Shown here: in pieces, positions 21,829 to 50,129 of the stretch
Layout of the letters: the number at the start of each line of letters is the position of its first letter
How positions within the stretch are numbered: position 1 is the first letter of the stretch
Origin: Candidatus Parcubacteria bacterium
GTDB lineage: Bacteria; Patescibacteriota; Minisyncoccia; Phycocordibacterales; JAKAEA01
Length of the DNA: 64,000 nucleotides
Direction of reading: 5' to 3'
Assembly (NCBI GenBank): GCA_963806325.1
Contig: CAWDXL010000002.1
Coordinates: forward strand, 128,802 to 192,801
Translations under genes and position numbers: made by a program
Notes under the pieces: model-generated
The model's database searches: none
What the model saw: the letters and a program-made list of their open reading frames with translations, nothing else
Told to the model about the DNA's origin: nothing

Positions 21829-21844
21829 GTGAACGAGCGTTCAC
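21829..21844. promoter_or_regulatory. SOS box (Cheo-type GAAC-N4-GTTC) upstream of lexA
   Basis: gtGAACgagcGTTCac is a perfect palindrome 16 bp upstream of the lexA start. Confidence 0.6.
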
Positions 21845-21912
21845 CCGTCAATGTGGATAACGTACCACGACACAAAAAATTACAAAAAACTAGTCGCTTT
21901 TAATATTTTAAT

Positions 21913-30510: not shown

Positions 30511-32317
<1,807 letters not shown>

Positions 32318-34011: not shown

Positions 34012-35025
34012 CTATTCGAAATAATCTATTTTGATAGCAGCCCTCACTTCTTTAAGTGTCTGCGCAGCGGCGAGGCGGACTTTTGCCGTGCCTTCTTTCA
34101 AAATATTCATCACATAGTCTGGATCTTTTGCCAAAGCCTCGCGCTTCTCTCGAATAGGCTTGATGAGCGTTTTCAAAATTTCTGCGAGGCGCTTTTTGAT
34201 AAGCACATCGCCGAGGCCTCCTTTTATATAATCAGCCTTGAGCTTCTCCACTTCTTCTTTATTGGAATCAAAAATATCGAGATAGATAAACACGACATTA
34301 CCTTCTACTTTTCCTGGATCTTCTACATGGACATGTCCCGGGTCGGTATACATCTGCATGACTTTTTCCTCGATTTCTTTATCGGAATCTGAAAGGTAAA
34401 TAGCATTGTTGAGCGACTTGCTCATCTTGGCATTGCCGTCGAGACCGATAAGCCGCGAGTGTTTTGACACAACAGGAGTAATCTTCTTAAAGACCTCGCC
34501 GTAGATGCTATTAAACTTTTGAATAATTTCATTGGCTTGTTCAAGCACCGGCAGCTGGTCTTCACCAACAGGTACAATATGTGCCTTGCATACCAAAATA
34601 TCGGCAGTCTGGCTCACGGGATACACCAAAAATCCAGCAGGCACATCTTCACCAAAACCTTTCTGCTGGATCTCGCTTTTTACGGTCGGATTTCTTTTGA
34701 GCCTGGCGAGCGTAACGAGATTTAAAAAGAAAATAGTCAGCTCGGCGATTTCTGGAATTTGTGATTGAATGAAAAAAGTAGTTTTTTCGGGATCAATGCC
34801 GCAGGCCAGATTGTCAAGCGCCACTTCAGCCACATTGCGCCGCACTTTTTCCGGGTTGTCGGCGTTGTCGGTAAGAGCTTGCACATCAGCGACCATATAA
34901 TAGGCATGCTCGTATTTTTCCTGAAGATCAAGCCTATTCAAAATAGAGCCGACATAGTGGCCCAAATGAAGCTTACCTGTCGGCCGGTCTCCTGTTAAAA
35001 CAGTATTTTTAGTATCTTTGCTCAT
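34012..35025 (-). CDS. trpS: tryptophan--tRNA ligase
   Basis: 'GDRPTGKLHLGHYVG' (HIGH) and 'KMSKSLNNAI' (KMSKS). Confidence 0.9.
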   Translation of the reverse strand: MSKDTKNTVLTGDRPTGKLHLGHYVGSILNRLDLQEKYEHAYYMVADVQALTDNADNPEKVRRNVAEVALDNLACGIDPEKTTFFIQSQIPEIAELTIFFLNLVTLARLKRNPTVKSEIQQKGFGEDVPAGFLVYPVSQTADILVCKAHIVPVGEDQLPVLEQANEIIQKFNSIYGEVFKKITPVVSKHSRLIGLDGNAKMSKSLNNAIYLSDSDKEIEEKVMQMYTDPGHVHVEDPGKVEGNVVFIYLDIFDSNKEEVEKLKADYIKGGLGDVLIKKRLAEILKTLIKPIREKREALAKDPDYVMNILKEGTAKVRLAAAQTLKEVRAAIKIDYFE

Positions 35026-35643: not shown

Positions 35644-36024
35644 TTATTCAGCCCTCCTCCAGATTTTCATGTACCACAGCAGCGGAGTGAATAAAAAAAT
35701 GAAAGTCATAAAGGCAATATACGCGGATTTTTGAGCGATGTTAAATGTCACGACAAGATACGCGAGCGTCGTCATCACCTGAACGGTAAATGTAAAAACT
35801 CCAATTTTTGCCGGTAAAAATCTATAAATAAGTCCGTACCATAGCAGGATTGATATGATAAAAATAATTTTAAATAAATTCATTGAGATCGAAATCAAAT
35901 AGAGGGATATAAAAATGCAAAATTCTGAAGCCACAGCAAGTCCGAGCATTGTGTTGGTCCATGTCAGCAGGCGGTTTTTTGTCCAATATTTTTTATTCAT
36001 GCGAAAATAATAAACCGAATGCAA
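35644..36024 (-). CDS. small polytopic membrane protein
   Basis: 126 aa with 3-4 TM helices. It overlaps the upstream small membrane ORF by 32 nt and is probably co-transcribed with it. Confidence 0.45.
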   Translation of the reverse strand: MHSVYYFRMNKKYWTKNRLLTWTNTMLGLAVASEFCIFISLYLISISMNLFKIIFIISILLWYGLIYRFLPAKIGVFTFTVQVMTTLAYLVVTFNIAQKSAYIAFMTFIFLFTPLLWYMKIWRRAE

Positions 36025-36280
36025 AAGCGAGTACGCCTGCTATCATCAAAAATATGCTAAGAGACCCGACAATTATCATTATGGGAATTCCTAGCGCAGT
36101 TTCCCAGCTAAAGCCGATAATATCTTCTTTTTCAACACTCATTTCTTTATTAAATAAATTTTTTATACCTCGTATAACATAAAGAAAAGGCGCGACAAAA
36201 ATAAGGAAGAGGAAGTAACAAATGTCCCAAAATATTTCTTCGATATCTTTCATTTTTTTTGGTGAGACATTCATATCCAC
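35993..36280 (-). CDS. small membrane protein (2 TM)
   Basis: 95 aa. It is the first gene downstream of operator site 1 and has an AGGTGG RBS. Confidence 0.45.
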   Translation of the reverse strand: MDMNVSPKKMKDIEEIFWDICYFLFLIFVAPFLYVIRGIKNLFNKEMSVEKEDIIGFSWETALGIPIMIIVGSLSIFLMIAGVLAFAFGLLFSHE

Positions 36281-36305
36281 CTATATGACATTAGCCATGT
36301 TAAAA

Positions 36306-36328
36306 ATGTTGTCTATATCTGACAACAA
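36306..36328. promoter_or_regulatory. palindromic operator site 1 (aTGTTGTC-tatatct-GACAACAA) with -35/-10-like promoter on minus strand
   Basis: Perfect 8-bp inverted repeat with a 7-bp AT spacer. On the minus strand it is preceded by TTGACT-N17-TTTTAT. It lies ~27 nt upstream of the ORF start at 36280. Confidence 0.6.
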
Positions 36329-36495
36329 TAAAATAATACTGACGCGGGCTAGTCAAATACTGTTAATAAACAGTAACAAAATTAGTCTTTTGATATAGAT
36401 ATTGTATTGAGGATTGTTAATACAGTTAAACGCTCGTTATTTATTAACAATCTTTAATTGAAATTCCTGTTGAATAGATTTAACAAATTTTATTA

Positions 36496-37404
36496 CTACT
36501 CCCCATGAGGTTTTATGTTTGGTAACTTTTCGCCATTCTTAACATATCTATCAAACCAATCAATCGTAGCTATATTACTTTCTTTTCTAAATTCTGTTAG
36601 GTTGTGATCAGCACCTTCATACATGATTAAGTGATATGGGATTTTGTATCTGAGTAATTTTTGTGCAAGTTCCAGCGAATCTAGGGGATTGACTCTCCAA
36701 TCTGCTGCCCCGTGCATTATAAGGATGGGTGTCTTTTTTGTCATCTTGTCTGCCCAATATAATGCTGATCGTTTTTTTAGTTCTTTGAGAGAACCTCCAA
36801 ACATTTTCTTAAAAACGCTCTTCATTTCTGGCCTTTCTTTTGATTGCCTTATTAAGTTTGTTGGACCAGCAATAGCAACAGCTGCTTTTAACCATTTTAC
36901 TTTTGCAAGTATGATAAATATCATCATTGCACCTCTGCTTGCTCCGTACATACCAATTCTTTTTGTATTAGCTCGAGAATATAGTCTTAAAATTTTATAC
37001 AGACTTACAATATCTTCAATATCTGATCCCCCATGTTCATCCTTCCCTTCTCCTCCCGCATTGCCCGAATATTGTGTAGTAATAGCGATGTATCCATTTT
37101 CAGCGAGACGTCCGATCATTCGAGTGAAAAGGTGTTCATCTTCTATTTTCCCAAAATTATTTGAACCTCCTCGGTTGTATATAATGCAGGGTAGTTCTTT
37201 TCCTTCGCGGGGTTCTACTATATACCCCACTACTTTGTGCCCTTGGGATTTATATATGATTTTATATGCAAATATTTTCTCACTCCTTTTTTGAGCAACA
37301 TCCTGTACTTTTTCGTCATACCTTCTTACCATCTCACGATTAAAATGAATCCCCTCGATATTTAAAATAAAAGAAATTTTTGATAGTTGATCAATGTTGG
37401 ACAT
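36496..37404 (-). CDS. alpha/beta-hydrolase (S9 peptidase / dienelactone-hydrolase-like)
   Basis: GxSxG 'MYGASRGAM', 'IMHGAADWRVNP', and 'GADHNL'. Confidence 0.7.
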   Translation of the reverse strand: MSNIDQLSKISFILNIEGIHFNREMVRRYDEKVQDVAQKRSEKIFAYKIIYKSQGHKVVGYIVEPREGKELPCIIYNRGGSNNFGKIEDEHLFTRMIGRLAENGYIAITTQYSGNAGGEGKDEHGGSDIEDIVSLYKILRLYSRANTKRIGMYGASRGAMMIFIILAKVKWLKAAVAIAGPTNLIRQSKERPEMKSVFKKMFGGSLKELKKRSALYWADKMTKKTPILIMHGAADWRVNPLDSLELAQKLLRYKIPYHLIMYEGADHNLTEFRKESNIATIDWFDRYVKNGEKLPNIKPHGE

Positions 37405-37446
37405 AAGGTAATTATAATTATTTTTTTATAAAAATCATACCCTGAG

Positions 37447-37992
37447 CTACAAAGAGTTCAGGGTATGAGCAGATATTATCTGCTGAGGAGAGTTACGAGC
37501 AGGCATCTCCACCATTGCAATCCGGCTTGGGGCGCATGATTGATCACAGTCGCCCTTACCGAGTTGGTGATAATTCCAATTCTCGCCAAGGTTGTCGCCG
37601 AGATGTTCCGCGATCAGTGCATGTGTACGATTGCGCAGTTCGCCACCGTCTGGCTTGTCTTCTGGTCGCCGAGGTCGGTGATGAAGAAAGTAGCCGAAGT
37701 ACTTATGGCAGAACTTTTGATAGTCCATCGTAAAAAGGATGAACGTGTGCCACCCTTCATCAATGCGAGTTGACGGTACAACTCTCCCAAACTTGCCGGC
37801 GAGCCACAAAAACTTGAGCGTGTCCTTAAATAAAGACACGGCCTGAGTTTCTGAAATGCTCAATTCCTGTGCAATGCGGGTGACAACGGCATTGTTATTG
37901 TATGCCATTACTCGCCCAAGGGATGGAAACTTACGGACCTTTGTGGTTGCTGACGTGTGGGCAACCTTACCACTGCGGTGACGGATGGTCAT
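37447..37992 (-). CDS. hypothetical protein (conserved 'IDEGWHTFIL ... HHRP' region)
   Basis: 181-aa ORF immediately downstream of operator site 2. Confidence 0.4.
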   Translation of the reverse strand: MTIRHRSGKVAHTSATTKVRKFPSLGRVMAYNNNAVVTRIAQELSISETQAVSLFKDTLKFLWLAGKFGRVVPSTRIDEGWHTFILFTMDYQKFCHKYFGYFLHHRPRRPEDKPDGGELRNRTHALIAEHLGDNLGENWNYHQLGKGDCDQSCAPSRIAMVEMPARNSPQQIISAHTLNSL

Positions 37993-38067
37993 GTGCCATC
38001 TCCTAAAAACAAAGTCAGAGAGAAAACCTCTCTGTAACTTCTATACATGAGAGTATCTGTATTAAAA

Positions 38068-38090
38068 TTGTTGTCTATATCTGACAACAA
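38068..38090. promoter_or_regulatory. palindromic operator site 2 (TTGTTGTC-tatatct-GACAACAA)
   Basis: Perfect palindrome. The minus-strand TTGACT-N17-CTTTAT sits upstream, ~75 nt before the ATG at 37992. Confidence 0.6.
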
Positions 38091-38250
38091 TAAAGTAATA
38101 TTGACTAACACCAGTCAAATGCTGTTGTGAAGGCACAACAGAAACCAGTGTTTGAATAAGGACCGTTTTGAAAACTGTTTGATTATACAAACACTAAAAA
38201 AGCAAGATAAAATATTTATAAAAAATCTTGTTGGAAGTCTCGAACAAATC

Positions 38251-39858
38251 CTAAGAAGTCTTGACCGGTATCTCGATATAAAATTGTGAGCCGGTGTTTG
38301 CACCTTCCGATTCTGCCCAGACGCGGCCGCTCATCGATTCAATCATGTTGCGGGCAATGTAGAGGCCGAGGCCGGTGCCAAGAATATTGGTCTCGTTGGC
38401 ATTTTCAGCCCGGCTAAATTTTTGGAAGAGCTTCGGCATGGTAGTAGCAGGAATGCCGACGCCGGTGTCAGAAATCTTGATGATGCTCTTGCCCGACTGC
38501 TCGGATATCGACACATTCACTTTAATATTGCCGTGAGGAGTATATTTGATAGAGTTGTCGAGAATGTTGCCGATGACCTGCTTCACCTTTCCTTTGTCGG
38601 CGTGGACCATATAATTTTTGTTCTGCTCAAATGTAAATTCGAGTGCAAGCCCGCGCTTCTCCACATTGGGCCGATATTCGCTTATCACTTCTTCCGCCAG
38701 CTTTTCAATATCAAAATCTGAATAGTCATATTTCATCTTGCCGCCTTCAATGCGCGACACATCAAGAAAATCACCAACGATGGTCACGAGATTGTTGGTC
38801 GAACTCATAATAATAGTAAGGGCCTGTGCAATCTCGGGTGAAACGGGACCATAATCCCCTTCTTGTACGAGAGAGATGTAGCCTTTTATGGCTGTAAGCG
38901 GCGCACGGATCTGGTGCGTAGCGAGCGAGACGAATTCATTTTTTAGAGCATCGAGCTCTTTTAGGCGCTCATTGGCAAACTCAATCTTAAACATGTCCCC
39001 GACCATGCGGATGCTAAAGATGAGGACAAGGATAAAGACACTGATGCGGAAGATGACAAGAGAGAGCGTGTTGGCAAAAATAATTTCGATAAAGCTGGTT
39101 ACGGTGAGAGCAAAAGCAAAGGTGAACGTCGTAATATTTTTTATGTTGAAAAGCTTGTGCCTATAGATTGCATAAGCTGTAAAAGCGATAAAAGGAAAAA
39201 TAAAAACGGCACCGAGGGGGATAAAATTATATAGGTTAAAGAATGCTGGGAGTAAGAAGTTTAATATAATTACTAAAGAGAAAGTTAAAATAATACCTAT
39301 TAAAACAATTTTAAACTGTCCTTTTTCTGTACCATGAGCCTGTATTGTTTTTTTAACAAACAAATATATTCCATAGCCCACAAGATACAAGACGAGAATA
39401 GCAAAAGGAATAATTCCCCAGCCTTCATTTACTCGCGCAACTGTACCAATAGTTACGCCTCCATCAATACTTTTAAAAATTGCAGGGGTAAGAGCAGAAA
39501 GTGATATTAAGATGCTTAAGGGTGTAAGTATGGTTTTATAGAACTTGGGGAAAAGTACTTCGGATCGTGGAAATACATATAAAAGTTGAAATAGTGTAAA
39601 AGCAAACCATACCGAAGAGAACATAAGTAGTCTTAGAAATGCTAAAACAATCTGAGGAGAATCTGATTGATAGTTTAGGTAATTAAAAGTACTCCAAAAA
39701 GATACCGCTACGGCTAAATACAGAAAAGATTTATTTGTTATATTTTTTCTGTTACTAAAATAAACTGCGACCCCCAAAATAAGAATAGCGGCAATCGAAA
39801 TGCCGACAGAAAGAAGAATCAAGATTCTGAAAAGGTAAGCTACCAAAAAAATTTTCAA
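38251..39858 (-). CDS. sensor histidine kinase (multi-TM sensor, HisKA + HATPase_c); no cognate response regulator nearby
   Basis: About 7 TM helices, an H-box 'LATHQIRAPLTAIKGY', an N-box 'NILDNSIKYT', and a G-box 'GTGLGLYIARNM'. Confidence 0.85.
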   Translation of the reverse strand: MKIFLVAYLFRILILLSVGISIAAILILGVAVYFSNRKNITNKSFLYLAVAVSFWSTFNYLNYQSDSPQIVLAFLRLLMFSSVWFAFTLFQLLYVFPRSEVLFPKFYKTILTPLSILISLSALTPAIFKSIDGGVTIGTVARVNEGWGIIPFAILVLYLVGYGIYLFVKKTIQAHGTEKGQFKIVLIGIILTFSLVIILNFLLPAFFNLYNFIPLGAVFIFPFIAFTAYAIYRHKLFNIKNITTFTFAFALTVTSFIEIIFANTLSLVIFRISVFILVLIFSIRMVGDMFKIEFANERLKELDALKNEFVSLATHQIRAPLTAIKGYISLVQEGDYGPVSPEIAQALTIIMSSTNNLVTIVGDFLDVSRIEGGKMKYDYSDFDIEKLAEEVISEYRPNVEKRGLALEFTFEQNKNYMVHADKGKVKQVIGNILDNSIKYTPHGNIKVNVSISEQSGKSIIKISDTGVGIPATTMPKLFQKFSRAENANETNILGTGLGLYIARNMIESMSGRVWAESEGANTGSQFYIEIPVKTS

Positions 39859-39867
39859 GTTGTCCTC

Positions 39868-40824
39868 CTAGCATGCCTTCTTAATTAAAAGGTATTGACC
39901 TGTTTGAGTATAGAATTTTACTTTTCCTTTGCATTTTTCTGCATACTGCAAAATATCCTTTTTTCTTAAAAATCTAAAATTTGAAAAAAGTTCAGCATTT
40001 AAGAAATGTGGATGGTTCCAACCCACAATGGTTTGTGGAATAATAACCATCCAGCTCCTAAAACCATCGTACTCAAAAATATTCTCCGTGATATTATTTA
40101 TCACAGCATCAAATTTTGGTTGCAATGTTAATGGTAGATGGTGTTTGAAAAGCGAGTGATAGATTATGTTAAAATATTTTTTGGGAAAAAATTTATCAAG
40201 ATTAAAAATATCATTTTTACATAAAATAAGTACCACCTTTTTTTGAGATGTTCTTTTTATAGATTCAACCTTAGTCTCATCTAAATTTTCTACCTCGTAA
40301 AAGTCTATCTTGTCAAAAATACCCTTAAGATTGTCTTTTGCAATTACTTGAGTTGTGGGTGATTTATCAACCGCAATCATAACAATCTTATGTTTAAAGT
40401 TAGAGGAAAGTATTTTTTTAATTATCTGATGATCAAGTTCCATGCCACCTGCACCAAGGTCAGCCATTACCACATCACTATTCTGTGAAAAAATAAAATT
40501 TGTTATTGTCTCAACAATAGGTTTAACAAGACCAGGTCTATCCTTTTCTTGCATCTCAATAAGTCTTTTATGCATCAACACATCCCACTCCTCCACTGGA
40601 AAATCAGTGAGTTCCAAGAGCTTTAAGCTATCGAGCTTAGGAGCCCGGAAAAAAAGCCACTTGAGATACGTCGGAAAATTTTTGATAGCCTTAAGAAAGG
40701 CAATATTCTCTTCTATTGCATACATTTCATCTTTATACTCAGGATTTTTCTTAAACGACTCCAATTTTTCAAGAGCACTTTTAATCTCGATATCTCGTGT
40801 GTTTTGCATATTATTTGTATTCAA
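39868..40824 (-). CDS. class I SAM-dependent methyltransferase
   Basis: Motif I 'VVMADLGAGGMEL'. It overlaps the upstream nitroreductase gene by 14 nt, which suggests an operon. Confidence 0.65.
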   Translation of the reverse strand: MNTNNMQNTRDIEIKSALEKLESFKKNPEYKDEMYAIEENIAFLKAIKNFPTYLKWLFFRAPKLDSLKLLELTDFPVEEWDVLMHKRLIEMQEKDRPGLVKPIVETITNFIFSQNSDVVMADLGAGGMELDHQIIKKILSSNFKHKIVMIAVDKSPTTQVIAKDNLKGIFDKIDFYEVENLDETKVESIKRTSQKKVVLILCKNDIFNLDKFFPKKYFNIIYHSLFKHHLPLTLQPKFDAVINNITENIFEYDGFRSWMVIIPQTIVGWNHPHFLNAELFSNFRFLRKKDILQYAEKCKGKVKFYTQTGQYLLIKKAC

Positions 40825-41863
40825 TCTGTGGCTCCATTCTCATTGCTCGTGCCGATGGGGCATCAGCATAGCCGAGGCGCATAAGCATGGGGATTTTCTT
40901 TCCTTGCACACCGAACGTATCCTCGATGGCATGATAGGCCTCATCTATTGCCTTCAGATGCTCTTTAGAAAAAGAAGCCGTGTCTCCTCCATCTATTCTC
41001 AGTTTAAAATAAAGCACGCCCGTGCATGGGTGTATGCTAAGGCCAAGTTTTGTAGCGGTGAGCCATACCCGCTCGACGGCCCTGCCTGCATTTATATAAT
41101 CTTTGTCGGTGCTTGCTTGTATTACGATCACGCCGAGTGCGGCAGATTTTGCATACTTCTCAGCATTTTCTTTTTCAATAGCTTTTGAGACTCCAGCAAT
41201 ATTAAAAATTTTCAAAATAGCCCAGCTTTTAAAAATTTTTACAGCTTTAAGCTGATGAGGTAAAAATTCGAGCGTCTTGATATAGAATCCCCCGGCTTTA
41301 TACTGCTCATTTTCATTCCATAAAATATGATTATAGAAAAAGGTGTGGAGAGCTTTATTCTCAAAAATGATCCGCTCATTGAGAGCAATTGCCTTCCCTG
41401 CTTTATCAAGAGACGGCTGATCATCAATAATTTTAAATTCACCAAATCCAGTACCTCTTGCATTTTCTATGAGTGCCTTTTTTTGATCATTATTAAGTTT
41501 GACGGGAGTATTTTCTTTTCTGTTGGTGCCGCGCAACGGTATCACCTGATACAAATCATCCTCTTTGATCGCTGATTTTTCCAAAGTCACTACCGAAACA
41601 AGATTTTTAATATTCTTATCGGGCAATACAGCTACGCTTGCTCTATATCCAAAGTGCGAAGCGCTGATAACAATATTTTCTATCAGGGCTCCGTGTGCTA
41701 CAAGGGAGCCTTTTTGCTCAAAATTGTACAGAGACTGATCTGCTTCCGGAATAATAAAAATAGAAATTTTGTTGCCCTCTACAATAAACTTCCATGGCTG
41801 GCAATTTTCTCCCGACGGAGCTTTGACACCATCGGTTATTATTTTTTGGATGTCATTGTTCAT
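40811..41863 (-). CDS. nitroreductase-fold FMN oxidoreductase, two-lobed/tandem architecture
   Basis: 'APSGENCQPWKF' at the N-terminus, with a second nitroreductase-like half ('AALGVIVIQAS...AGRAVERVWLTATKLGL'). Total length 350 aa. Confidence 0.65.
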   Translation of the reverse strand: MNNDIQKIITDGVKAPSGENCQPWKFIVEGNKISIFIIPEADQSLYNFEQKGSLVAHGALIENIVISASHFGYRASVAVLPDKNIKNLVSVVTLEKSAIKEDDLYQVIPLRGTNRKENTPVKLNNDQKKALIENARGTGFGEFKIIDDQPSLDKAGKAIALNERIIFENKALHTFFYNHILWNENEQYKAGGFYIKTLEFLPHQLKAVKIFKSWAILKIFNIAGVSKAIEKENAEKYAKSAALGVIVIQASTDKDYINAGRAVERVWLTATKLGLSIHPCTGVLYFKLRIDGGDTASFSKEHLKAIDEAYHAIEDTFGVQGKKIPMLMRLGYADAPSARAMRMEPQIEYK

Positions 41864-41942
41864 ATTAATGAATTATAGCAGAGTGCATTTTAATTGCGAA
41901 GACCTTCGGGTGCACAGAGTGGTGACTTGCTTTTTATTAACT

Positions 41943-41965
41943 ATGTTGTTAGTGTTAAACAACAA
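41943..41965. promoter_or_regulatory. variant palindromic operator (aTGTTGTT-agtgtta-AACAACAA) in divergent promoter region
   Basis: The TGTTGT-N9-ACAACA core is shared with the other five sites. It lies between the trmB-like gene (+) and the nitroreductase operon (-). Confidence 0.45.
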
Positions 41966-41990
41966 TATATTTAGAAGCTAATTTTATCTT

Positions 41991-42767
41991 ATGCTTGTAA
42001 AAGACCTTATAGAATTTGGACTTAATGAAAAAGAAGCAAAGGCTTATCTTGCTCTGCTCGAGCTTGAAGTGGCGGGCGTGCAGGAGATTTCTAAAGCAGC
42101 CGGTATCAATAGAAGCTCGGCGTATATTACCCTTGAGGCACTCAAGGAGCGTGGACTCGTCAGTATTTCTGATGACAAAAAAGTGCGAAGATATGTAGCT
42201 ACGTCTCCCGATGCAATTCTTAGAACTGCAGAAGATATGGTCGCCAAGCAAGAACGTATTCAGAAAAAAATATCAGCGATGATTCCGGAGATGAAAGCTT
42301 TATATAAGGGAGTGAAAAAGAAACCAATAATACAAGTGTATGAGGGTAAACAAGGACTTATAAATTGTTTTGAAGAAACTCTTAAAAACAAAGAAAAATT
42401 GATGAGAGTGTGGTCTGCTCCAGCAAATTTAGGAAGGATTATTTATGAATATTTGCCTGGGTATATTAGCAAAAGACTTGGTCTGGGAATAAAAATGATC
42501 GGTATCCACCCAGATAATGGAATACATAAGAAAATGGCACATGATATTAGTCAGGCTCCTGATGAAAACTTACTCATACCATCGGATAAATACAATTTTA
42601 CTGCCGACCTGGCAATCTATGATGATAAAATTAGCTACATGTCTAGTGAGAACGATGGGCTAGCTGTTATTATTGAAAGCAAAGAAATATCTGAGGTTAT
42701 GAAAAGCATTTTTGATCTTGCGTGGGAGGAGGCGAAAAGGTTGAGCAAGGGTGAGAAGAAATCATGA
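41991..42767 (+). CDS. TrmB-family transcriptional regulator
   Basis: N-terminal wHTH 'FGLNEKEAKAYLALLELEVAGVQEISKAAGINRSSAYITLEALKERGLV', plus a C-terminal effector-domain-like region. Confidence 0.75.
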   Translation: MLVKDLIEFGLNEKEAKAYLALLELEVAGVQEISKAAGINRSSAYITLEALKERGLVSISDDKKVRRYVATSPDAILRTAEDMVAKQERIQKKISAMIPEMKALYKGVKKKPIIQVYEGKQGLINCFEETLKNKEKLMRVWSAPANLGRIIYEYLPGYISKRLGLGIKMIGIHPDNGIHKKMAHDISQAPDENLLIPSDKYNFTADLAIYDDKISYMSSENDGLAVIIESKEISEVMKSIFDLAWEEAKRLSKGEKKS

Positions 42768-42903
42768 GGCTTAATATATCAATAATTGATTCTCGGTTTT
42801 TTATTTCTCGAGTAAGCTTTTGTGCATAATCTTTCTTAAAAATTCCTCGAATTCCTAGGCGTGCTTTTTATGAAGAGATGTATGAGAATTCATGTGCATA
42901 GCT

Positions 42904-43752
42904 TTATAATGCAGATATAAATCTTAGAAAATTTCGACTCTCAGTTTCGGGTAGTAGACTGCCTAGCTTTGTATTTGGAGTATATGTAGCACCATGCCAA
43001 TCACTTCCACCAGTTATGACTAAATTATATTTTTTTGCAAGCTTTTCTAGAGTATTTATCTGCTCTGGAGTATGTGAAGGATAATATACTTCAATACCCT
43101 GTAGTCCGCACAACACAAGTTCACTAATGAAGTTTTCATAATTTTCTTCGATCCAAGCCTCTCATAAATTCTGCCCGAATGTGCAATGACCACAATCCCG
43201 CCGTTTTTCTTTATGAGATCTATAACAGTCTTTGGATTAAACATCCACGAATCGTCTTCCTCAACAAATACATATTGTTTAAGGGCATCTTTGATTGTGA
43301 TTTTTTGTTTTAAAAAAAGACATACTAAGCGTGCAAGTGTGTTTCTTGTAATATATTGTTCGTGATGTTTATTATATATATTCTTCAAAATTTAGGTTTA
43401 TTCCCGGTAGCTCTCTGTTTATTTTTTCGATAATTTTTTTAGCTCGGATATTATATCCATCAATGACCGGTTTCAAGGCACTATTTATCTCGAGATTAAA
43501 TTTCTTAGAATATCCGAGCATGTGTATTGATATATTCCTTTTTTTATCGATACATGAAATTTCTATACCATCTACAAAGTATACATTGATCGCTTTTGCA
43601 TCGCGCTTGATATCCTGTACTTTAGGACTAATATAATTATGATCTACGACTGAAAAAAGTGATATACCACTTTCTTTGATTTTAGAAAGTACATATTTAG
43701 GGGAATGCTCTCCGTCTGAATAGTATGAGTGAATGTGAAGATCTGTTTTCAT
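42904..43752 (-). pseudogene. PHP-domain phosphoesterase split across three reading frames
   Basis: 43372..43752 carries 'DLHIHSYYSDG'. 43056..43388 carries 'GGIVVIAHSGR'. 42904..43116 carries 'GIEVYYPSH...ITGGSDWHG'. All three are collinear with one PHP protein. Confidence 0.6.
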
Positions 43753-43779
43753 ATTTTAATTATTATAACAAATAAAATA

Positions 43780-43803
43780 TCCGCTGATAGGTTTCTCAGC
43801 GGA
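43780..43803 (-). terminator. rho-independent terminator after nucleotidyltransferase gene
   Basis: tccgctga-taggtttc-tcagcgga. On the minus strand the stem is followed by ATTTTATTTGTT. Confidence 0.5.
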
Positions 43804-43811
43804 CAATATTT

Positions 43812-44582
43812 TTAGTAGGTCAGAGACTTGCATATTTCCTCATAGGAACCTTTGAATTCATCTCCTTTAAGAACTAAATTTACAACATTTTCATACCACG
43901 TCATTAAGCTTAGTGCCTTCTGAAAATTTAAACCTTTCTTACAAGATAAAAGAAATGGTTCGGCCGGGAGTGAATTAACGCCATATACATTATCAAACAA
44001 TTTCTGCGCCAGTCTAATGTTAGATGGTGAACAGTAATAATTCTTGCGAAGTAAACACGAATTATAAGTTAGGGCATTTCCGATGCCATGTAAGAGTTTG
44101 CTCACATAGATTCTCCCAGATTCTCCTTCAAGTGATCTGATAAGCTGTCTTCTGCATATTGTCCTATTGTCGTACAAAACATACCCAGCCAGATCTTTGA
44201 AATCAAATTTTGTCTGATCATCAGTGGTTGATCTTAGATAAAAATTTCCTTTTAGAGAATTGCCGAACACCAGCGATGGGTTGTAACGTGGATACCATAG
44301 AGGTGACCCAATATCTTCAACCTCATCCTGAGTATGAGGCACAAGATCAATGTCACATTTCCATTTTGAAACCAGCATTTCCCGATGTTTTTTTAATGAA
44401 ATGTACACTGACCTATCAACAATCCCAGAACTACTTGGAACAATAATTGCGATATCAACATCAACTGATGTCTCATCATAGTACCAAGAGCCATACGCCA
44501 ATGCTGAAATTACCTCATCGACATTCCTTAGATAGTCAGCAATCCCAACCCAATAAGTACGTCCTCTTTTTTCACAAGTCAA
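43812..44582 (-). CDS. nucleotidyltransferase-fold protein (Pol-beta-like NTase superfamily)
   Basis: 'ALAYGSWYYDETSVDVDIAIIV' gives the G[GS]...DxD signature. The start codon appears to be TTG. Confidence 0.5.
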   Translation of the reverse strand: MTCEKRGRTYWVGIADYLRNVDEVISALAYGSWYYDETSVDVDIAIIVPSSSGIVDRSVYISLKKHREMLVSKWKCDIDLVPHTQDEVEDIGSPLWYPRYNPSLVFGNSLKGNFYLRSTTDDQTKFDFKDLAGYVLYDNRTICRRQLIRSLEGESGRIYVSKLLHGIGNALTYNSCLLRKNYYCSPSNIRLAQKLFDNVYGVNSLPAEPFLLSCKKGLNFQKALSLMTWYENVVNLVLKGDEFKGSYEEICKSLTY

Positions 44583-44667
44583 ACCTTTCTGTAAAAATTT
44601 TACCTACAAGGTAAAATTTAAATGTATAGAACTTAAAAACTCTAAAATTAGAATAATCTTTGTATAA

Positions 44668-44690
44668 TTGTTGTCTATATATAACAACAA
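44668..44690. promoter_or_regulatory. palindromic operator site 3 (TTGTTGTC-tatatat-AACAACAA)
   Basis: Minus-strand TTGACA-N17-TTATTT lies upstream. The site is ~86 nt before the start at 44582. Confidence 0.55.
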
Positions 44691-44857
44691 AAATAAAATA
44701 TTATCATTATATATGTCAAAAGTTGTTTAAATGTTTAAACAGTAAATTTCGCTGCGACATAAGGTAGTTCCACTAAGTTGTTGATCAGTATCAACATTCA
44801 TTTTTAGAATGTACTCTAATTCAAAATAAGTCGTTCTTAGGATCAAACAAAACACAG

Positions 44858-45325
44858 TTACCTCTTATACATCTCCTCTAAAATAAAGAATACGAGCTGG
44901 CATGTGCTGCAGTGGTTGAGATTTTTGTCCGATAAAATAAAATTCCGCATCTTGGTGTCGTTTGAAAGTGCGAGGTACATTTTTCTTAGAAGCTCTTTAT
45001 CACACTGCTCGAGCTTATTGTACAAGCTTTCTGCTTCACTGAAAGCAAACTTGTGTTTGTATTTGCTGCACACTATTTTTTTAACTTTTTCCAGAAGATG
45101 TTCCCTTTCGATTGTTGCCAAAAGATAATTTCCCATCTCGCACGGAGTTATCCTTTCTCGCCAGTCAGCTTCCGGAAAACTTATTTCAAACTGGTCAAAA
45201 AGCTCAAGCAAATCTTTTTTACAGATGACTGATCTTGCTAAAACTATCTCAAGCCATCTAAATTCGAGTTCGGTGTAACCATTCCAGATATCTGTCAACT
45301 CCTGTATTTCAGTAGGCATATACAA
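44858..45325 (-). CDS. hypothetical protein
   Basis: 155-aa ORF immediately downstream of operator-like site 5. Confidence 0.4.
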   Translation of the reverse strand: MYMPTEIQELTDIWNGYTELEFRWLEIVLARSVICKKDLLELFDQFEISFPEADWRERITPCEMGNYLLATIEREHLLEKVKKIVCSKYKHKFAFSEAESLYNKLEQCDKELLRKMYLALSNDTKMRNFILSDKNLNHCSTCQLVFFILEEMYKR

Positions 45326-45346
45326 GGAAGCTTAGTATTCTGTTTT

Positions 45347-45369
45347 TTGTTGTCAAAGCACAACAGTAT
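45347..45369. promoter_or_regulatory. degenerate operator-like site 5 (TTGTTGTC-aaagcac-AACAGtat) plus conserved upstream module
   Basis: The left half is perfect. Roughly 120 bp of flanking sequence are shared with the module upstream of the rSAM gene (tgtcaaaagctgtt..., a(g/t)c(g/t)gtttatttttag). Confidence 0.4.
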
Positions 45370-45555
45370 TTATTATATTCCCGTGAAAATATGTCAAAAG
45401 CTGTTTAAGTGCCAAAACATCCAGTCTTGTGCAATATAGCTAAAAATCAGCGGTTTATTTTTAGTTTATAACAGCTAAATAAAGGAGTTTATTGATTTAA
45501 ATTTTATTTTGTTATGTTATACAAACACTCTCCATGAATATTCATTTTGCCAAGT

Positions 45556-45885
45556 CTATTCGATATCTCTCTTTTTGGTAAAAAATCCCTGCCGAAGGCG
45601 AAAAGCTATTCGTCTGTCGTGATGAACAATAGGCATACCAATCACTTGTTTGCATGTGGCGCATGTGAGCGGCGCAATATTTTTAGGATCTGTAGACCCT
45701 CTATCATATTGCAATTTCTCAAAATTTTCTGGTCCAAATATCCGATTAAGATAGCAACGCTTCAGTTTTCCATCACTATCTTTTTGATAATGAAGCAGTT
45801 CAGCACCACACAGACAAAAAAGCCTGATCATGAATGCTTTTCCGCCACGTATCTTGCGGTACTTGTCGTTTTTCATTTTCACCAT
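45556..45885 (-). CDS. small zinc-ribbon protein (CxxC...CxxC), function unknown
   Basis: 'FCLCGAELL ... LTCATCKQV'. It is the last gene of the rSAM-peptide-peptidase unit. Confidence 0.4.
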   Translation of the reverse strand: MVKMKNDKYRKIRGGKAFMIRLFCLCGAELLHYQKDSDGKLKRCYLNRIFGPENFEKLQYDRGSTDPKNIAPLTCATCKQVIGMPIVHHDRRIAFRLRQGFFTKKRDIE

Positions 45886-45945
45886 AAAACCAATATCTTA
45901 TAGAGGTAGGGTGTTGAAATTTAATCTTTCAATTTCTTAAATTAC

Positions 45946-46578
45946 TCAAATTAGCCTCTGTTTATTTATTTCTTCATAAGTGAGATTGAATCCGTATTCT
46001 TTTGTGAAAGATTCTTCAAACTTCTCTTTTGTTTTAATATTCTTTAAATTTTTAATAAAATTGAGCAACTTTTGCTTGCCAAATTTTTCAACGAGACCAT
46101 CAACAAAAAAACCTGCTTCGCTATATACCTCTTTTCCTCCAACTTCATAAAACTCAAGGAATTTACTAAATACTATCGGTTTTTTCTTGAATTTAATTTG
46201 ACCCGATGTATATATTGCAACACCCTCATTGAGCCATACAGGTGTATGGTTTCCGCCTGCAAGAATATTATAAAAAGAGTGGCTTAGTTCGTGCTTTATT
46301 AATGCAGAGTACTCATCTGGGTGGTACACATGATCACTCTCTTTTCCAAAATTATCCTTATTTAATATATATACTGTTTTCCCTTCTGACCAACCGACTA
46401 TCCATTTCTCAGTTTCCTCACCTTTCAAAAGATTGATAGTTTCACGATTATCAACAATAACGATTTTGGGAAGATGGTGTATCCAGTTAATTTCATAGAA
46501 AATATTTAAATCACTCATTGAATTCTTATATACACTTTCCAGAAAATCATCTTTTGTTAAATTTATTTTAAATATCAT
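45946..46578 (-). CDS. gluzincin-type (peptidase MA-like) zinc metallopeptidase
   Basis: 'IKHELSHSF' (HExxH) followed by 'WLNEGVAIY', which is M1-like HExxH...NEG geometry. Confidence 0.55.
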   Translation of the reverse strand: MIFKINLTKDDFLESVYKNSMSDLNIFYEINWIHHLPKIVIVDNRETINLLKGEETEKWIVGWSEGKTVYILNKDNFGKESDHVYHPDEYSALIKHELSHSFYNILAGGNHTPVWLNEGVAIYTSGQIKFKKKPIVFSKFLEFYEVGGKEVYSEAGFFVDGLVEKFGKQKLLNFIKNLKNIKTKEKFEESFTKEYGFNLTYEEINKQRLI

Positions 46579-46608
46579 GTTTGTAGTTAAATTGTAGCAT
46601 AAAATAAA

Positions 46609-46639
46609 AGGAGAGGTCGGGGTTTAATCCGCCTCTCCT
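46609..46639 (-). terminator. hairpin (attenuator/partial terminator) immediately after the Cys-rich peptide ORF
   Basis: aggagagg-N16-cctctcct, followed on the minus strand by TTTATTTTATG. Confidence 0.35.
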
Positions 46640-46645
46640 GTCGTT

Positions 46646-46777
46646 CTACTTATCACAGTCACTGGCGCAGTCACATGAGACACAGTCGTAGCAGGCACCG
46701 TTGTCACACGACAGACTTTGTGTGCCAGTCCGTACTTCCGTCTCCACAAGAGACACGAAACCATCTTCTTGCTGCAT
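46646..46777 (-). CDS. 43-aa Cys/Asp-rich putative RiPP precursor peptide (MQQEDGFVSLVETEVRTGTQSLSCDNGACYDCVSCDCASDCDK)
   Basis: Absent from the ORF track because it is under 60 aa. It has a strong RBS (GGAGGTG-N9-ATG). The core carries 6 Cys and 5 Asp in its C-terminal 20 aa. It lies 42 nt downstream of the rSAM/SPASM gene. Confidence 0.6.
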   Translation of the reverse strand: MQQEDGFVSLVETEVRTGTQSLSCDNGACYDCVSCDCASDCDK

Positions 46778-46819
46778 GATAATTATCACCTCCTTTCTAT
46801 TTGAATGTACTATTAATTT

Positions 46820-48133
46820 TTATATCAATGATACAGCATTGCGACGTGCAAGTCCCCACACAAACTCCTGTGGATCAAGTCCCCACCAGTCAATTGTTTT
46901 GGTAACAATGTTGTATGTGGTCTCAGATTTCAACTGACTTAATACAGCAAAACCGTTGTGATCCAAAAACACGTTATTATTACTAGAAACAAAGACCCCG
47001 CCAAAAGCTTCCCTTCTTAATCTAAAAATTGGCGTTTTAAAACAGCCGATTGAAACTTTCTGTGGATGTTTCTTTGAAAGTTTAATGGCCTCTATCATTT
47101 CTTCGACATGATCAAGTGCAGTTAGGGAGTCCAACCCATTAATTTTACCGGTACTAGTTTTTGCCTCCATCCGACAACCGGAACCGCACATGTTAAGCAT
47201 GTTGCAAGTCGAGCACTCGGTAGGGACATTGACTCTTTGGCTCCACGGATCCATTTTTGCCCAAATCGTACCAAGGTCTTCTTTTAGTAAATTCCCACAT
47301 GATGTGTCGAGATGAGGACAAGGCCTCACTGAACCATCGTATGAGATAGTGGCTGTAGTAACTCCCGCATTACATCTTCTCGACGTAAATAGTTCTGGGT
47401 GTTTGACGCCATACAAACCACAATACGGGATTGGCTCAAGACTATCCACATGAAGGCCGAGATTTTCGTGGATCCAACAAAGGTCGTTGAGAAACTGAAT
47501 TAATTGCGGTCGATTTACTTGTAGATGAGAGAAGTCTGAACAGTTTCCAGGACATCCGGCTTTAGTTGCCATGAAGTTATTGATTCCGAGCTTGGCAACA
47601 AATTTTGCTGTTTCTATCACTTGACCGTGATTAATTTGAGAAACAACCATATTCGCCGATACTCGAATTCCAGCATCCTGAGCATTTTTGATTCCTTCAA
47701 CCAATTTTCTAAAAGACCCCTGTCTTTGGGTAATGGAGTCGTGTATCTCAGGGGTGGGACCTAGAATCGAGGTTAGTGTATGATCAAGTCCTGCGCGCTT
47801 AAGACTTCTTGCTTTTTCTACAGTAAGTGGCACAAGATTTGAATTTAAACCAACCCCCATATTCATTGATCGAGCATACTCGATGCTCGAGAGAGTTGTT
47901 GTAAAATTAAGAAGAGGTTCCCCACCAGTTATGCTCACATTAAATACTTCAGCCTCACCAAGTTTTGCAAGTATGCTTAAGGCATCTTTTTCACTGAGTG
48001 AAACATTCTGTAAACAAGATGCTGTCTTCTCGTCTTTTTCCCTCCAAAAATTATAGCAATGAACGCATCTACTCGTACATTCTCCAGTGACTTCAATCTG
48101 GACATTAAGTGGCGATCTCAATCTCTTGTTCAT
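46820..48133 (-). CDS. radical SAM / SPASM-domain peptide-modifying enzyme
   Basis: CxxxCxxC 'TGECTSRCVHCYNF' and a C-terminal SPASM Cys cluster ('CNAGVTTATISYDGSVRPCPHL ... CSTCNMLNMCGSGC'). The start is ATG 48133 with an AGGAG RBS. Confidence 0.8.
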   Translation of the reverse strand: MNKRLRSPLNVQIEVTGECTSRCVHCYNFWREKDEKTASCLQNVSLSEKDALSILAKLGEAEVFNVSITGGEPLLNFTTTLSSIEYARSMNMGVGLNSNLVPLTVEKARSLKRAGLDHTLTSILGPTPEIHDSITQRQGSFRKLVEGIKNAQDAGIRVSANMVVSQINHGQVIETAKFVAKLGINNFMATKAGCPGNCSDFSHLQVNRPQLIQFLNDLCWIHENLGLHVDSLEPIPYCGLYGVKHPELFTSRRCNAGVTTATISYDGSVRPCPHLDTSCGNLLKEDLGTIWAKMDPWSQRVNVPTECSTCNMLNMCGSGCRMEAKTSTGKINGLDSLTALDHVEEMIEAIKLSKKHPQKVSIGCFKTPIFRLRREAFGGVFVSSNNNVFLDHNGFAVLSQLKSETTYNIVTKTIDWWGLDPQEFVWGLARRNAVSLI

Positions 48134-48206
48134 GAATGACTCCTGTGCTTTTGGCACATAAAACAATTGTCAAAAAACTCTATTTTTGATAGTAATACCA
48201 TTAAAA

Positions 48207-48229
48207 TTGTTGTCTATATCCAACAACAA
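48207..48229. promoter_or_regulatory. palindromic operator site 4 (TTGTTGTC-tatatcc-AACAACAA)
   Basis: Minus-strand TTGACA-N17-TTTTAT lies upstream. The site is ~75 nt before the rSAM ATG (48133). Confidence 0.55.
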
Positions 48230-48627
48230 TAAAATAACATCTTAACGTATGTGTCAAAACCTGTTGAAAGACTGAAACATATAACAGTATTTAATCTAGG
48301 GAAAATTTAGCTGTTTATTTTTACTTCATAACAACTATTTTTATGGCTGTACTGATTTCTGGGATAAGTTGTTATGAAAATCAAACAGATGTGATTTGAC
48401 AAAAAAATTAGCTGAGAATATTATATGGCACATATTATGCGAATATATTTCGACTGTCAGCAGCAGATACTAACGCCCCAGCAGATGCAACATCTGTCGC
48501 TTTTGTATAGCCGAAACATATTTAGCTAACCCTCAAACCTAAATATATCCCGGCTGCACAAAAGCCGGGACTTTTGTGCAGTATGCGTTCTTTCCAGTTC
48601 TTTGGTCTTATTGTGAAGGAGTTCCCT

Positions 48628-48861
48628 ATGTGGGGAATGGCACAAGTTGTAGCCGTTGATACTTTCTCTACTTTGGAGAAGCTCAAGTCTCATGATCTGC
48701 GTCAACTCGCCAGGAGTCTGGATCCTGAGCACAGATCTCTCGTTGCTCAACAAATGGATACACCTGATGATGTGTTAAGAGATCTATCTGTTGATGGGTC
48801 ATCGGAAAAAGTTCGTATGGCCGCAAAATCCACGCTGCAGAAGAAGTATCCTCACGGTTGA
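48628..48861 (+). CDS. small hypothetical protein (77 aa)
   Basis: GAAGGAG RBS 6 nt before the ATG at 48628. It overlaps the competing minus-strand ORF 48526..48753, which lacks an RBS. Confidence 0.4.
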   Translation: MWGMAQVVAVDTFSTLEKLKSHDLRQLARSLDPEHRSLVAQQMDTPDDVLRDLSVDGSSEKVRMAAKSTLQKKYPHG

Positions 48862-48947
48862 GGTGTTGTCCGTGCGGCAAACGGGCTCCTAAAAAGGGCG
48901 ACTATCGTCTAGTTGCCCTTTTTCTTTTATTATCTATCGATAATATT

Positions 48948-50129
48948 CTATAATCCGAAAATTTTCTTAAAATTATCAGCGACTTCTTTGCGGTGAGCCA
49001 CTTGCTCCGGAGTATTGTAATGCGGATTCAATATGCTATCCATAACGATAAGAGAGCGGTTTGATTCAAGCGGCTGTTTGTTTAAGATTCTGCGTACACA
49101 GTATGCAACAGCGGCACCATTGACGAGTGCTGCACCGCCAAGCTGCGGCCACGAAACAATCGTTTTCCCCATTTCCATGAGCGATTGCTGCATGCGCTCA
49201 GTGACATTTTCTGGTCCGACATGCTGAGTAATTGTTTTGCCGATGCCAAATTTATCAAGCTTGCTCAATGATTCATAGGTCACCCCAGGAAGCCTGCCTT
49301 GGAAAAATGGGGTGTTTCGATCGAGATCGTATCGTTCAACATCAACGACCGCATTGTCACCGTTGTCTGCAGCCATGACAATTGGCACACGGTGTTTCTT
49401 GGCATTTTCGCGAATGAGAAATTTTACGGCAAGATTGTCGAGTTCATCAATCATGACATCAAGCCCTTTGACAAAGGTATCAACATTGTCAGGCTGAATA
49501 CCGTCAGGAAATGTTTCCACAACGGCGTAAGGATTGATTTCATAAATAAATCGGGCAGCCATATTCACTTTAAGCACTCCGAGATTGTCGACGCCGGAAA
49601 GAATCCTATTTGTATTTGAAAGCGCGAGGCGATCCATGTCGGCGAGCTTCATGTGCTTTGCTCCGCCTTGAAGCGCAAGAGCAAACGCTACACTCGATCC
49701 GACACTCAGTCCACCAATGCCAACGGTGGCGTTATAAAATTTGTCCTGCTCTTCCTGATTGATAAGGTTTCTGTTGCGGGCTGTGCGCACCATCTGAAAA
49801 TCAGCTTCCGGCAAAACATGAGTCAATTTTGAAATCCACGGGAAAAATACCCACAAGCCATGCTGCCAGAGAGGCTGGATTTTCTGCAAATTTTCATAAA
49901 ATGCTTTAAATTCCTGCCTGTACGTCGGGGTATATACTTTTGTCGGATTTTTGACGCCAAAAAGCTCAAGCTGCTCTTCTTCATAATCGTCAACAATGTG
50001 CTGAATGCTGCCATTATCAAAAAGCTTACTTACCGCAGCCCTGTCTTTCTCGTCTGAGAGATTAAAAAGAACAGGCTTTGATGAAATGTCTCTATTTGCT
50101 TCCTGCGTCAATTTTTTGGCAAGGTCCAT
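48948..50129 (-). CDS. ThiF/MoeB-family E1-like adenylyltransferase with ~120-aa N-terminal extension
   Basis: Rossmann motif 'NATVGIGGLSVGSSVAFALALQGG' and 'DVMIDELDNLAVKFLIRENAKKHRVPIVMAADNG'. Confidence 0.65.
   Translation of the reverse strand: MDLAKKLTQEANRDISSKPVLFNLSDEKDRAAVSKLFDNGSIQHIVDDYEEEQLELFGVKNPTKVYTPTYRQEFKAFYENLQKIQPLWQHGLWVFFPWISKLTHVLPEADFQMVRTARNRNLINQEEQDKFYNATVGIGGLSVGSSVAFALALQGGAKHMKLADMDRLALSNTNRILSGVDNLGVLKVNMAARFIYEINPYAVVETFPDGIQPDNVDTFVKGLDVMIDELDNLAVKFLIRENAKKHRVPIVMAADNGDNAVVDVERYDLDRNTPFFQGRLPGVTYESLSKLDKFGIGKTITQHVGPENVTERMQQSLMEMGKTIVSWPQLGGAALVNGAAVAYCVRRILNKQPLESNRSLIVMDSILNPHYNTPEQVAHRKEVADNFKKIFGL

Follow-up and report, generated by a model that had tools for sequence, protein, structure and literature searches.

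A palindromic repeat in a Parcubacteria genome is a predicted operator of a TrmB-family autoregulator

Introduction

What is the function of a palindrome that recurs six times upstream of gene starts in a short stretch of a bacterial genome, and which protein, if any, recognizes it? The palindrome is found in 64,000 nucleotides (nt) from a Candidatus Parcubacteria bacterium (contig CAWDXL010000002.1, positions 128,802 to 192,801 of the forward strand), a stretch that we refer to as the window and whose coordinates we use throughout. An earlier reading made from the letters alone (the sequence-only reading) described six copies of the palindrome, and proposed that they are the operators of one regulon or parts of a reusable promoter cassette. 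Here, we describe the occurrence, positions and cross-genome conservation of the palindrome, and its co-variation with the recognition helix of a TrmB-like protein encoded among the sites. We propose that it is probably the operator of this protein.

Members of the candidate phyla radiation (CPR) are mostly uncultivated, with genomes of ~1 Mb and few regulators. To our knowledge, almost nothing is known of transcriptional control in this group. A literature search found no paper that mentions TrmB together with Patescibacteria or the CPR.

Results

Six copies of the palindrome in one low-GC stretch

Site scans covered the 64-kb window. Searching for TTGTTGTC-N7-GACAACAA with up to three mismatches gave five matches (36306, 38068, 41943, 44668 and 48207) versus 0.36 expected, and none of 100 shuffles reached five. 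The exact core, TGTTGT-N9-ACAACA, is found at 36307, 38069, 41944, 44669 and 48208, with no other copy in the 64 kb. A sixth site, at 45347, is degenerate (TACTGT-N9-ACAACA, two mismatches) and is in register with its own -35 element. All six are where the sequence-only reading placed them. The palindromes are 21–23 bp long and intergenic, 22–86 nt 5ʹ of the starts of open reading frames (ORFs) on the minus strand. We also scored the sites with a position weight matrix (PWM) trained solely on 51 sites from other genomes (consensus TATTGTTGTCAATAATTGACAACAATA); the consensus from relatives can be written TTGTTGTCAAT-A-ATTGACAACAA, with TGTTGT-N9-ACAACA as its core. We refer to the site at 41943 as class B and to the other five as class A. 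The sites are as follows:

36306..36328, minus strand: class A operator (O1), core at 36307, PWM score 28.8; -35 TTGACT at 36351-36356
38068..38090, minus strand: class A operator (O1), core at 38069, PWM score 30.5; -35 TTGACT at 38113-38118
41943..41965, plus strand: class B operator ATGTTGTTAGTGTTAAACAACAA, on the promoter of the TrmB-like gene itself, core at 41944, PWM score 25.9
44668..44690, minus strand: class A operator (O1), core at 44669, PWM score 29.1; -35 TTGACA at 44714-44719
45345..45368, minus strand: degenerate class A site, scored at 45348, PWM score 15.4; -35 TTGACA at 45392-45397
48207..48229, minus strand: class A operator (O1), core at 48208, PWM score 29.4; -35 TTGACA at 48252-48257

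The random maximum of the PWM is 12.9, which all six sites exceed, and the scan of the window found no further site. The motif-bearing stretch (36000-48000) is bounded by trpS (34012-35025) and a ThiF-like gene (48948-50129). Its GC content is 35–39%, versus 40–46% in the flanks and elsewhere, which fits a variable accessory region.

The palindrome is conserved upstream of trmB and changes with the recognition helix

Which protein recognizes the palindrome? To answer this question we assembled contigs carrying orthologues of the TrmB-like gene at 41991-42767 (hereafter trmB), and 80 more loci from a metagenome scan made with an alignment of 33 orthologues; individual loci are given by label (e.g., L016). 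Homologues at 50–68% identity are overwhelmingly metagenomic, and the few with names are from Candidatus Staskawiczbacteria, Wildermuthbacteria and Azambacteria, which fits a source among the Parcubacteria-type members of the CPR. The exact core is directly upstream of trmB in L016, L019/L020, L021 and L102, and L017 has a site with one mismatch. A site with no more than one mismatch is present within 260 bp upstream of trmB in 26 of the 37 loci that encode a helix of the form NRSS[AT]YV[VI]LE, and in 2 of the 36 loci from other subfamilies. Upstream regions are 82-fold enriched for sites (33 in 10.2 kb, versus 13 in the remaining 343 kb), and there are 1.8 sites per kb in the first 300 bp from trmB but none farther than 6 kb away.

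Different subfamilies of the protein have different dyads. The helix NRSS[AT]YV[VI]LE pairs with TGTTGT/ACAACA. For the subfamily with the helix TRTNxYHLLN, all seven loci (L056, L060, L067, L068, L072, L074 and L076) have TGTCAA-N6-TTGACA 46–72 nt upstream, and further subfamilies carry other dyads, such as TGTAAA-N5-TTTACA. Helix and dyad vary together, and no gene other than trmB is a constant companion of the motif; both points argue that the TrmB-like protein is the cognate autoregulator. Hence, on comparative grounds, the protein that recognizes the palindromes in the window is almost certainly the one encoded at 41991-42767, and the co-variation and the 82-fold enrichment lend indirect support to sequence-specific binding to the inverted repeat. 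The idea of a single-regulator regulon is supported by retention of the motif upstream of orthologues and by its co-variation with the helix.

A scan of species-representative genomes with TTGTTGTNNNATATAGACAACA, a pattern too specific to the spacer of this genome, gave 14 scattered single matches, approximately the number expected by chance, and the only one in Patescibacteria was L014. In L041, tandem TrmB-like genes (~9018-9960 and 10001-10756) both encode an NRSS-type helix, and an operator-like site precedes the upstream gene only.

The regulator is a TrmB-family protein without a sugar-binding domain

41991..42767, plus strand: TrmB-like regulator of 258 amino acids (aa), with a winged helix-turn-helix (wHTH), recognition helix INRSSAYITLE, a long coiled-coil helix and a C-terminal alpha/beta domain

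Residues 8–73 match PF01978 (E 1.7e-17; 63.5 bits versus a gathering cutoff of 25.6), which places the domain among TrmB-type wHTHs. An AlphaFold2 model with a predicted local distance difference test score of 88.8 has the recognition helix at residues 41–53, the long helix at 74–104 and the alpha/beta domain at 113–257. Foldseek matched the full-length model to TrmBL2 (E 7e-14, ~260 columns, template modelling score about 0.5), indicating a TrmB-family architecture, and a profile of 33 orthologues matches TrmBL2 and TrmB chains in the PDB. In those 33 orthologues Y45 is invariant, as are N40, R41 and S42. Y45 appears to be equivalent to Y50 of P. furiosus TrmB, which is important in DNA recognition (PMC4158304); we base this equivalence on that report and on the offset of the profile alignment (query residues 5–157 to 3QPH chain residues 10–153) rather than on superposition.

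The 258-aa protein has no Pfam match beyond the HTH, and so no match to the sugar-binding effector domain found in TrmB-family proteins of ~340 aa. Its scores against the NCBIfam TrmB and TrmBL1 equivalogs are 30–36 bits versus cutoffs of 600–650, and it is also far below the cutoff of the TrmBL2 equivalog. The regulator should not be filed as a sugar sensor. Its family is large: there are 893 clusters at 50% identity (E <= 1e-30), and approximately one third of the top 150 representatives have an NRSS-type helix.

The class B operator overlaps the trmB promoter

In 33 orthologous loci, the class B site has a consistent layout: a -35 element (TTGACT, TTGCAT or TTGCTT), 17 nt, and then TAnnnT within the operator spacer, as in TGTTGT-TATACT-nnn-ACAACA; L102, for example, has TTGACT-N17-TAGGCT. 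The promoter in the window is TTGCTT-N17-TAGTGT, with TAGTGT inside the spacer. The overlap of operator and -10 element implies autoregulation, and regulator bound at the class B site would cover both the -10 element and the start site, which suggests autorepression.

The sequence-only reading had assigned the 41943 site to the divergent nitroreductase operon. The site belongs instead to the trmB promoter, and that operon has a promoter-like site of its own:

41872..41900, minus strand: TTCGCA-N17-(TG)TATAAT, separate promoter-like site of the nitroreductase / 318-aa / histidine-kinase operon (38251-41863)

This promoter lies downstream of the 41943 operator, which is near -90 relative to it, and control of the operon by the regulator is doubtful. 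The “methyltransferase” label given to the ORF at 39868-40824 has no family match behind it. We also considered whether the regulator directly controls the PaaK-like / ThiF / nitroreductase / kinase operon and dropped the idea, since no operator other than the trmB-proximal site is upstream of these genes in the window, L016 or L017.

Class A sites are part of a promoter-like module that heads accessory genes

The five class A sites share a module on the minus strand: AACAG-N2-TTTGAC(A/T), 23–24 nt, the palindrome and, often, ATTTTAA. The -35 element, TTGAC(A/T), is at a fixed distance of 29–30 nt before the start of TGTTGT. The promoter described in the sequence-only reading is thus found, as far as its -35 element is concerned, at five of the six sites and not at 41943. 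The operator begins 23 nt past the -35 element and would span about -7 to +15 of any promoter that uses it, making the suggested repressor-operator geometry plausible. The sequence-only reading gave the flank TGTCAAAAnCTGTT for every site; two copies have it exactly, three approximately, and 41943 lacks it. The longer flank of ~100–120 bp shared by the copies at 45.4 and 48.3 kb is real. Of the two half-sites, the downstream one (AT[AC]GACAACAA) shows the stronger conservation, as expected if the upstream one must coexist with promoter sequence. The class A sites head the following genes:

36306: two membrane-protein ORFs of 95 aa (35993-36280) and 126 aa (35644-36024)
38068: 181-aa ORF (37447-37992) and S9-type hydrolase (36496-37404)
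44668: Pol-beta-type nucleotidyltransferase-like ORF (43812-44582)
45345 (weak site): 155-aa ORF (44858-45325)
48207: radical SAM/SPASM protein (46820-48166), 46-aa ORF, Peptidase_MA_2 protein (45946-46578) and 109-aa ORF (45556-45885)

Nine further class A copies are found in eight other loci (two in L016, and one each in L022, L023, L040, L043, L051, L059 and L091). In other genomes, the class A module normally heads the gene divergent from trmB, and that gene varies: small peptides (some of them Gly-rich), GreA-like proteins, a radical SAM enzyme, and members of the 181-aa family that is also found in the window and recurs near trmB in six other loci. Most of the target genes in the window have no homologue in other trmB loci, and hence are accessory. 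The sequence-only reading suggested that the sites coordinate an undescribed system; the genes under them are better described as a heterogeneous accessory set than as one demonstrable system. A PADLOC search of the proteins encoded in this stretch found no defence system, only generic radical-SAM similarity to pVip and one match with an E-value of 0.009.

In the genomes of L016 (9562-9723) and L021 (9622-9726), a class A module is directly followed by a small glycine-rich ORF that is divergent from trmB; an example is MANQPTGPHGGSSGGTSTGNNGSGGGSHGGPRGG. These ORFs may encode real peptides or precursors of modified peptides. Divergent from the radical-SAM module in the window, a near-consensus promoter on the plus strand (TTGACA-N17-TATTAT, 48396-48424) is followed by a hairpin and T-run (48548-48570), a GAAGGAG ribosome-binding site with its 77-aa ORF (48629-48861), and a terminator (48891-48923). 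The whole of 48396-48923 could be a leader or small RNA together with a gene for a small protein.

A second, weaker dyad (O2) is found ~51–52 bp upstream of class A operators, abutting the -35 element. Across 14 modules, offsets of -51, -52 and -54 are among the best, with 5.3–5.5 mismatches versus a background of 8.7. In the window, the following dyads are of this type:

36358-36378: weak upstream dyad of the 36306 module
38120..38140, minus strand: O2, TGTTGT-N9-ACAGCA, one mismatch, 51 bp upstream of O1

L016 has two exact operators 53 bp apart (5720-5793), between divergent genes for an alpha/beta hydrolase and a PALP-domain protein, 4 kb from trmB. The paired dyads at 38120 and in L016 hint, with modest support, at cooperative binding.

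The bidirectional control region of trmB has been copied within the window

A distance of 105–110 bp separates the class A operator from the class B operator in L016, L040, L043, L051, L059 and L091. Three of the class A modules in the window have a decayed dyad of the class B type upstream of the operator:

44776..44796: class-B-type relic, AGTTGT-N9-TCAACA, two mismatches, 107 bp upstream of 44669; PWM score 10.0
45456..45476: class B relic, identified by alignment, four mismatches, 108 bp upstream of 45348; PWM score 6.5
48316..48336: class B relic, AGTTGT-N9-AAAATA, identified by alignment, three mismatches, 108 bp upstream of 48208

These relics and the intact trmB operators of other genomes align column by column, and the position of the relics at the canonical spacing indicates that the three modules are copies of the whole bidirectional control region of trmB. 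The modules at 36307 and 38069 are 80% identical to each other over 83 nt. The presence of the module in other genomes and the trmB-side relics in the window both support the idea of a reusable promoter cassette. We propose that the class A module was ancestrally the promoter of the gene divergent from trmB. The control region, ~190 bp long, would have been duplicated several times in this lineage so that it now heads unrelated accessory genes, with its trmB-side operator decaying. The window, with six sites over 12 kb, and L016, with five, are lineage-specific expansions of what is otherwise a regulon of one or two promoters.

Conserved neighbours of trmB

Some genes recur near trmB in other genomes, as follows:

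PaaK-like 516-aa adenylating enzyme: near trmB in 12 loci
ThiF-like protein: near trmB in 11 loci
Nitroreductase: near trmB in 9 loci
HisKA_7TM kinase: near trmB in 19 loci

The Rv1355c family model is matched in its N-terminal half by the ThiF-like protein (E 1.7e-96) and in its C-terminal half by the nitroreductase (E 7e-60). TrzS, as Rv1355c is also called, is an oxazolone synthetase (PMC12856293). In relatives, the genes for these two proteins are adjacent and, together with those for the PaaK-like enzyme and the 7TM histidine kinase, lie beside trmB (L016 10792-16265; L017 2612-9694; L103 857-6314). In the window, the gene set is at 40811-41863, 48948-50129 and 51314-52864, with the ThiF-like and nitroreductase genes split by ~7 kb of trmB and accessory genes. 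There is no response regulator near the 7TM histidine kinase.

Several window genes are in pieces: dnaK (519 + 122 aa; 55656-57570), hisS (three pieces; 53043-54433), an ABC transporter gene (30511-32317) and a PHP-domain gene (42904-43752). Either frameshifts have made these genes pseudogenes or the assembly is in error here. In the related contig L102, dnaK is likewise in fragments.

Discussion

How might the palindrome work? The mechanism that best explains our observations, and that we consider probable, is local repression by the TrmB-family protein. The regulator would bind the inverted repeat as a dimer, or possibly as a higher oligomer. At the trmB promoter, where the operator lies over the -10 element and start region, binding would cause autorepression; at the five neighbouring promoters, regulator bound at about -7 to +15 would exclude RNA polymerase, and the weaker dyad ~51 bp upstream may add cooperativity. 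The regulator would be released by a signal, for which the C-terminal domain is the presumed sensor, and the accessory genes and trmB would be switched on together.

Certain points weigh against this model. Binding, the transcription start sites, repression, the oligomeric state and the signal are features that we infer, and the regulon census covers only 64 kb of the genome. The upstream site, at a threshold of one mismatch, is missing from 11 of the 37 orthologous loci. The half-sites are 15 bp apart, centre to centre, which exceeds the spacing in known archaeal TrmB operators, and the closest structure, TrmBL2, is that of a chromatin protein with little specificity for the most part. As for the O2 dyad, it has one mismatch at 38120 and three to five in most other modules, and 3 of the 14 modules show no match to it; the dyad is thus weak and its significance modest. 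Lastly, the class A -10 element is poor. The sequence-only reading placed a T-rich hexamer 17 nt from the -35 element; TTTTAT or CTTTAT is indeed present there in the window, but without a conserved A at -11, and a consensus scan calls only 44719-44690 a promoter. The hexamer is not conserved elsewhere, with CCCGGT and CGCCCC at this position in L051 and L059. A search for alternatives with spacers of 16–21 nt, hexamers within the operator, the opposite strand and motifs of the extracytoplasmic function (ECF) type found none that is consistent across genomes. Thus, the class A promoter is incompletely understood, leaving room for an activating or anti-activating role.

Could the TrmB-like protein bind the palindrome and act as an activator, or as a dual regulator, at class A promoters? 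In favour of this, the -10 element is not conserved and lacks A(-11), and the upstream dyad abuts the -35 element; moreover, archaeal TrmBL1/Tgr activates or represses according to the position of its site (PMC4158304). However, the strong, conserved site is downstream of the -35 element, over the expected start, which in bacterial promoters generally, and in every characterized case from the TrmB family, is the repressing position. Of the two dyads, it is the upstream one that is degenerate. We therefore consider activation unlikely, although it is the alternative to repression that we take most seriously.

It is also conceivable that the palindrome is the operator of LexA or of another protein, with trmB merely one of the targets. 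The window includes lexA (21243-21875, Peptidase_S24), which the sequence-only reading offered as a candidate binder, and the co-location of the motif with trmB does not by itself prove binding. Like the palindrome, the LexA/SOS box is a palindromic operator that precedes several genes and has an autoregulated repressor; unlike those of the SOS system, the genes controlled here are not DNA-repair genes. But lexA has its own box of the GAAC-N4-GTTC form, a canonical GAACGCTCGTTC at 21831-21842, 16 nt before the lexA ATG, and no copy of TGTTGT-N9-ACAACA is found outside 36–48 kb. As for other proteins, the motif changes with the recognition helix of the TrmB-like protein, trmB is the sole consistent neighbour of the motif while the divergent targets differ among genomes, and scanning or reading parts of the window revealed no other HTH protein. 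Recognition by LexA or another regulator is, on this evidence, very improbable. We note that the start of lexA (minus strand) is most likely the ATG at 21815 rather than the TTG at 21875, and that its GAACGCTCGTTC box is of the Gram-positive type.

An explanation at the level of RNA has slightly less to recommend it. In a 5ʹ leader, the palindrome could form a hairpin that, with a U-run behind it, serves as an attenuator or a stability element: each site can fold into a stem of 6–9 bp (-5.6 to -9.4 kcal/mol), there is a T-run after four of the class A copies, and a terminator scan flags 36327-36307. Yet the stems are weak and A/U-rich and do not resemble terminators or attenuators, and the hairpin at 41943 does not outdo shuffled sequences (z -0.84). 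The window shows no rRNA, and it gave no match in Rfam and tRNA scans. In many genomes, at more than 50 sites in all, the sequence TGTTGT/ACAACA itself is kept and compensatory changes are absent; variants with two mismatches change only one arm or non-paired positions. Relative to genes, the element is found either way round, and one of its positions is across the trmB -10 element; transcription would probably start inside the palindrome, leaving its left arm untranscribed. A hairpin function can be set aside with little hesitation.

The notion that the repeats are ends of a mobile element or recombination sites, akin to MITEs or integron attC sites, with an incidental resemblance to promoters, draws on the ~80–190 bp modules before unrelated accessory genes in a low-GC stretch and on the rearrangement of the locus relative to relatives, with ThiF and nitroreductase separated, but we regard it as equally remote: no integrase or transposase domain was found among the ORFs of this stretch, the sites are 5ʹ of genes whereas attC cassette boundaries are at 3ʹ ends, the class A copies all have one orientation with fixed short distances from gene starts and fixed distances from the -35 element, dozens of genomes have the motif upstream of trmB with no surrounding repeats, and the repeated unit is identifiable as the bidirectional control region of trmB. 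Duplication of that region is itself part of the repression model, and nothing indicates autonomous mobility.

How does the predicted regulator-operator pair compare with known systems? Archaeal TrmB-family proteins bind inverted repeats, and several autoregulate; a site over the start site leads to repression, and an upstream site to activation (PMC4158304). The protein in the window shares with TrmB and TrmBL1 (Tgr) the PF01978 wHTH and the invariant tyrosine of the recognition helix, and would share inverted-repeat operators, autoregulation and repression where the site overlaps the start. In contrast to these proteins, it is from a bacterium, has 258 aa with no sugar-binding domain, and has accessory targets rather than genes of sugar metabolism. 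Its half-site also differs, and the N9 spacing is longer: the archaeal operators are TACT-N3-AGTA, the TGM motif TATCAC-N5-GTGATA and, in Halobacterium, TACT-N7-8-GAGTA. Among solved structures, the best full-length match in both structure and sequence is TrmBL2 of Thermococcales (PDB 5BOX/5BPD/5BQT), which likewise has ~260 aa and no sugar-binding domain. TrmBL2 is chromatin-like, binding coding and intergenic DNA with little specificity (PMC4158304); identity to it is ~19%, and the operator described here, unlike the sites of TrmBL2, is sharply defined and conserved over 21–23 bp. The arrangement also resembles that of local repressors of the MarR and TetR types, in which the regulator is divergent from its target, operators lie over both promoters, and the regulon is limited to neighbours. 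The differences are that the protein is from another family and that, in this genome, at least three more promoters have received a copy of its bidirectional control region.

What signal might release the regulator? A product of the conserved neighbouring enzymes could be its ligand, or the kinase could provide an input, but this is speculation. A broader idea, to which we give only a small chance, is that the TrmB-like regulator is the output of a small-molecule signalling circuit specific to Patescibacteria, and that the duplicated cassette plugs acquired accessory genes into the signal. If so, the genes plugged in would include the radical-SAM peptide-modification unit, small secreted or membrane peptides, and hydrolases, and the signal could bear on the episymbiotic lifestyle. 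The oxazolone-synthetase-like gene set and the 7TM kinase, as conserved neighbours of the regulator, represent a possible link to chemistry.

Taken together, sequence comparison indicates that the regulator-operator pair is real, conserved and of a known kind, that of a TrmB-family local autoregulator. As a genetic switch it would be ordinary in kind, although none like it has so far been described in this little-known group. The pair is concrete, comprising a 258-aa protein and a 23-bp site, and tests of it in vitro or in E. coli would not require culture of the host. Among subfamilies, helix and operator change together, which amounts to a small recognition code. The locus is also a clear example of the growth of a regulon by duplication of a whole bidirectional control region.

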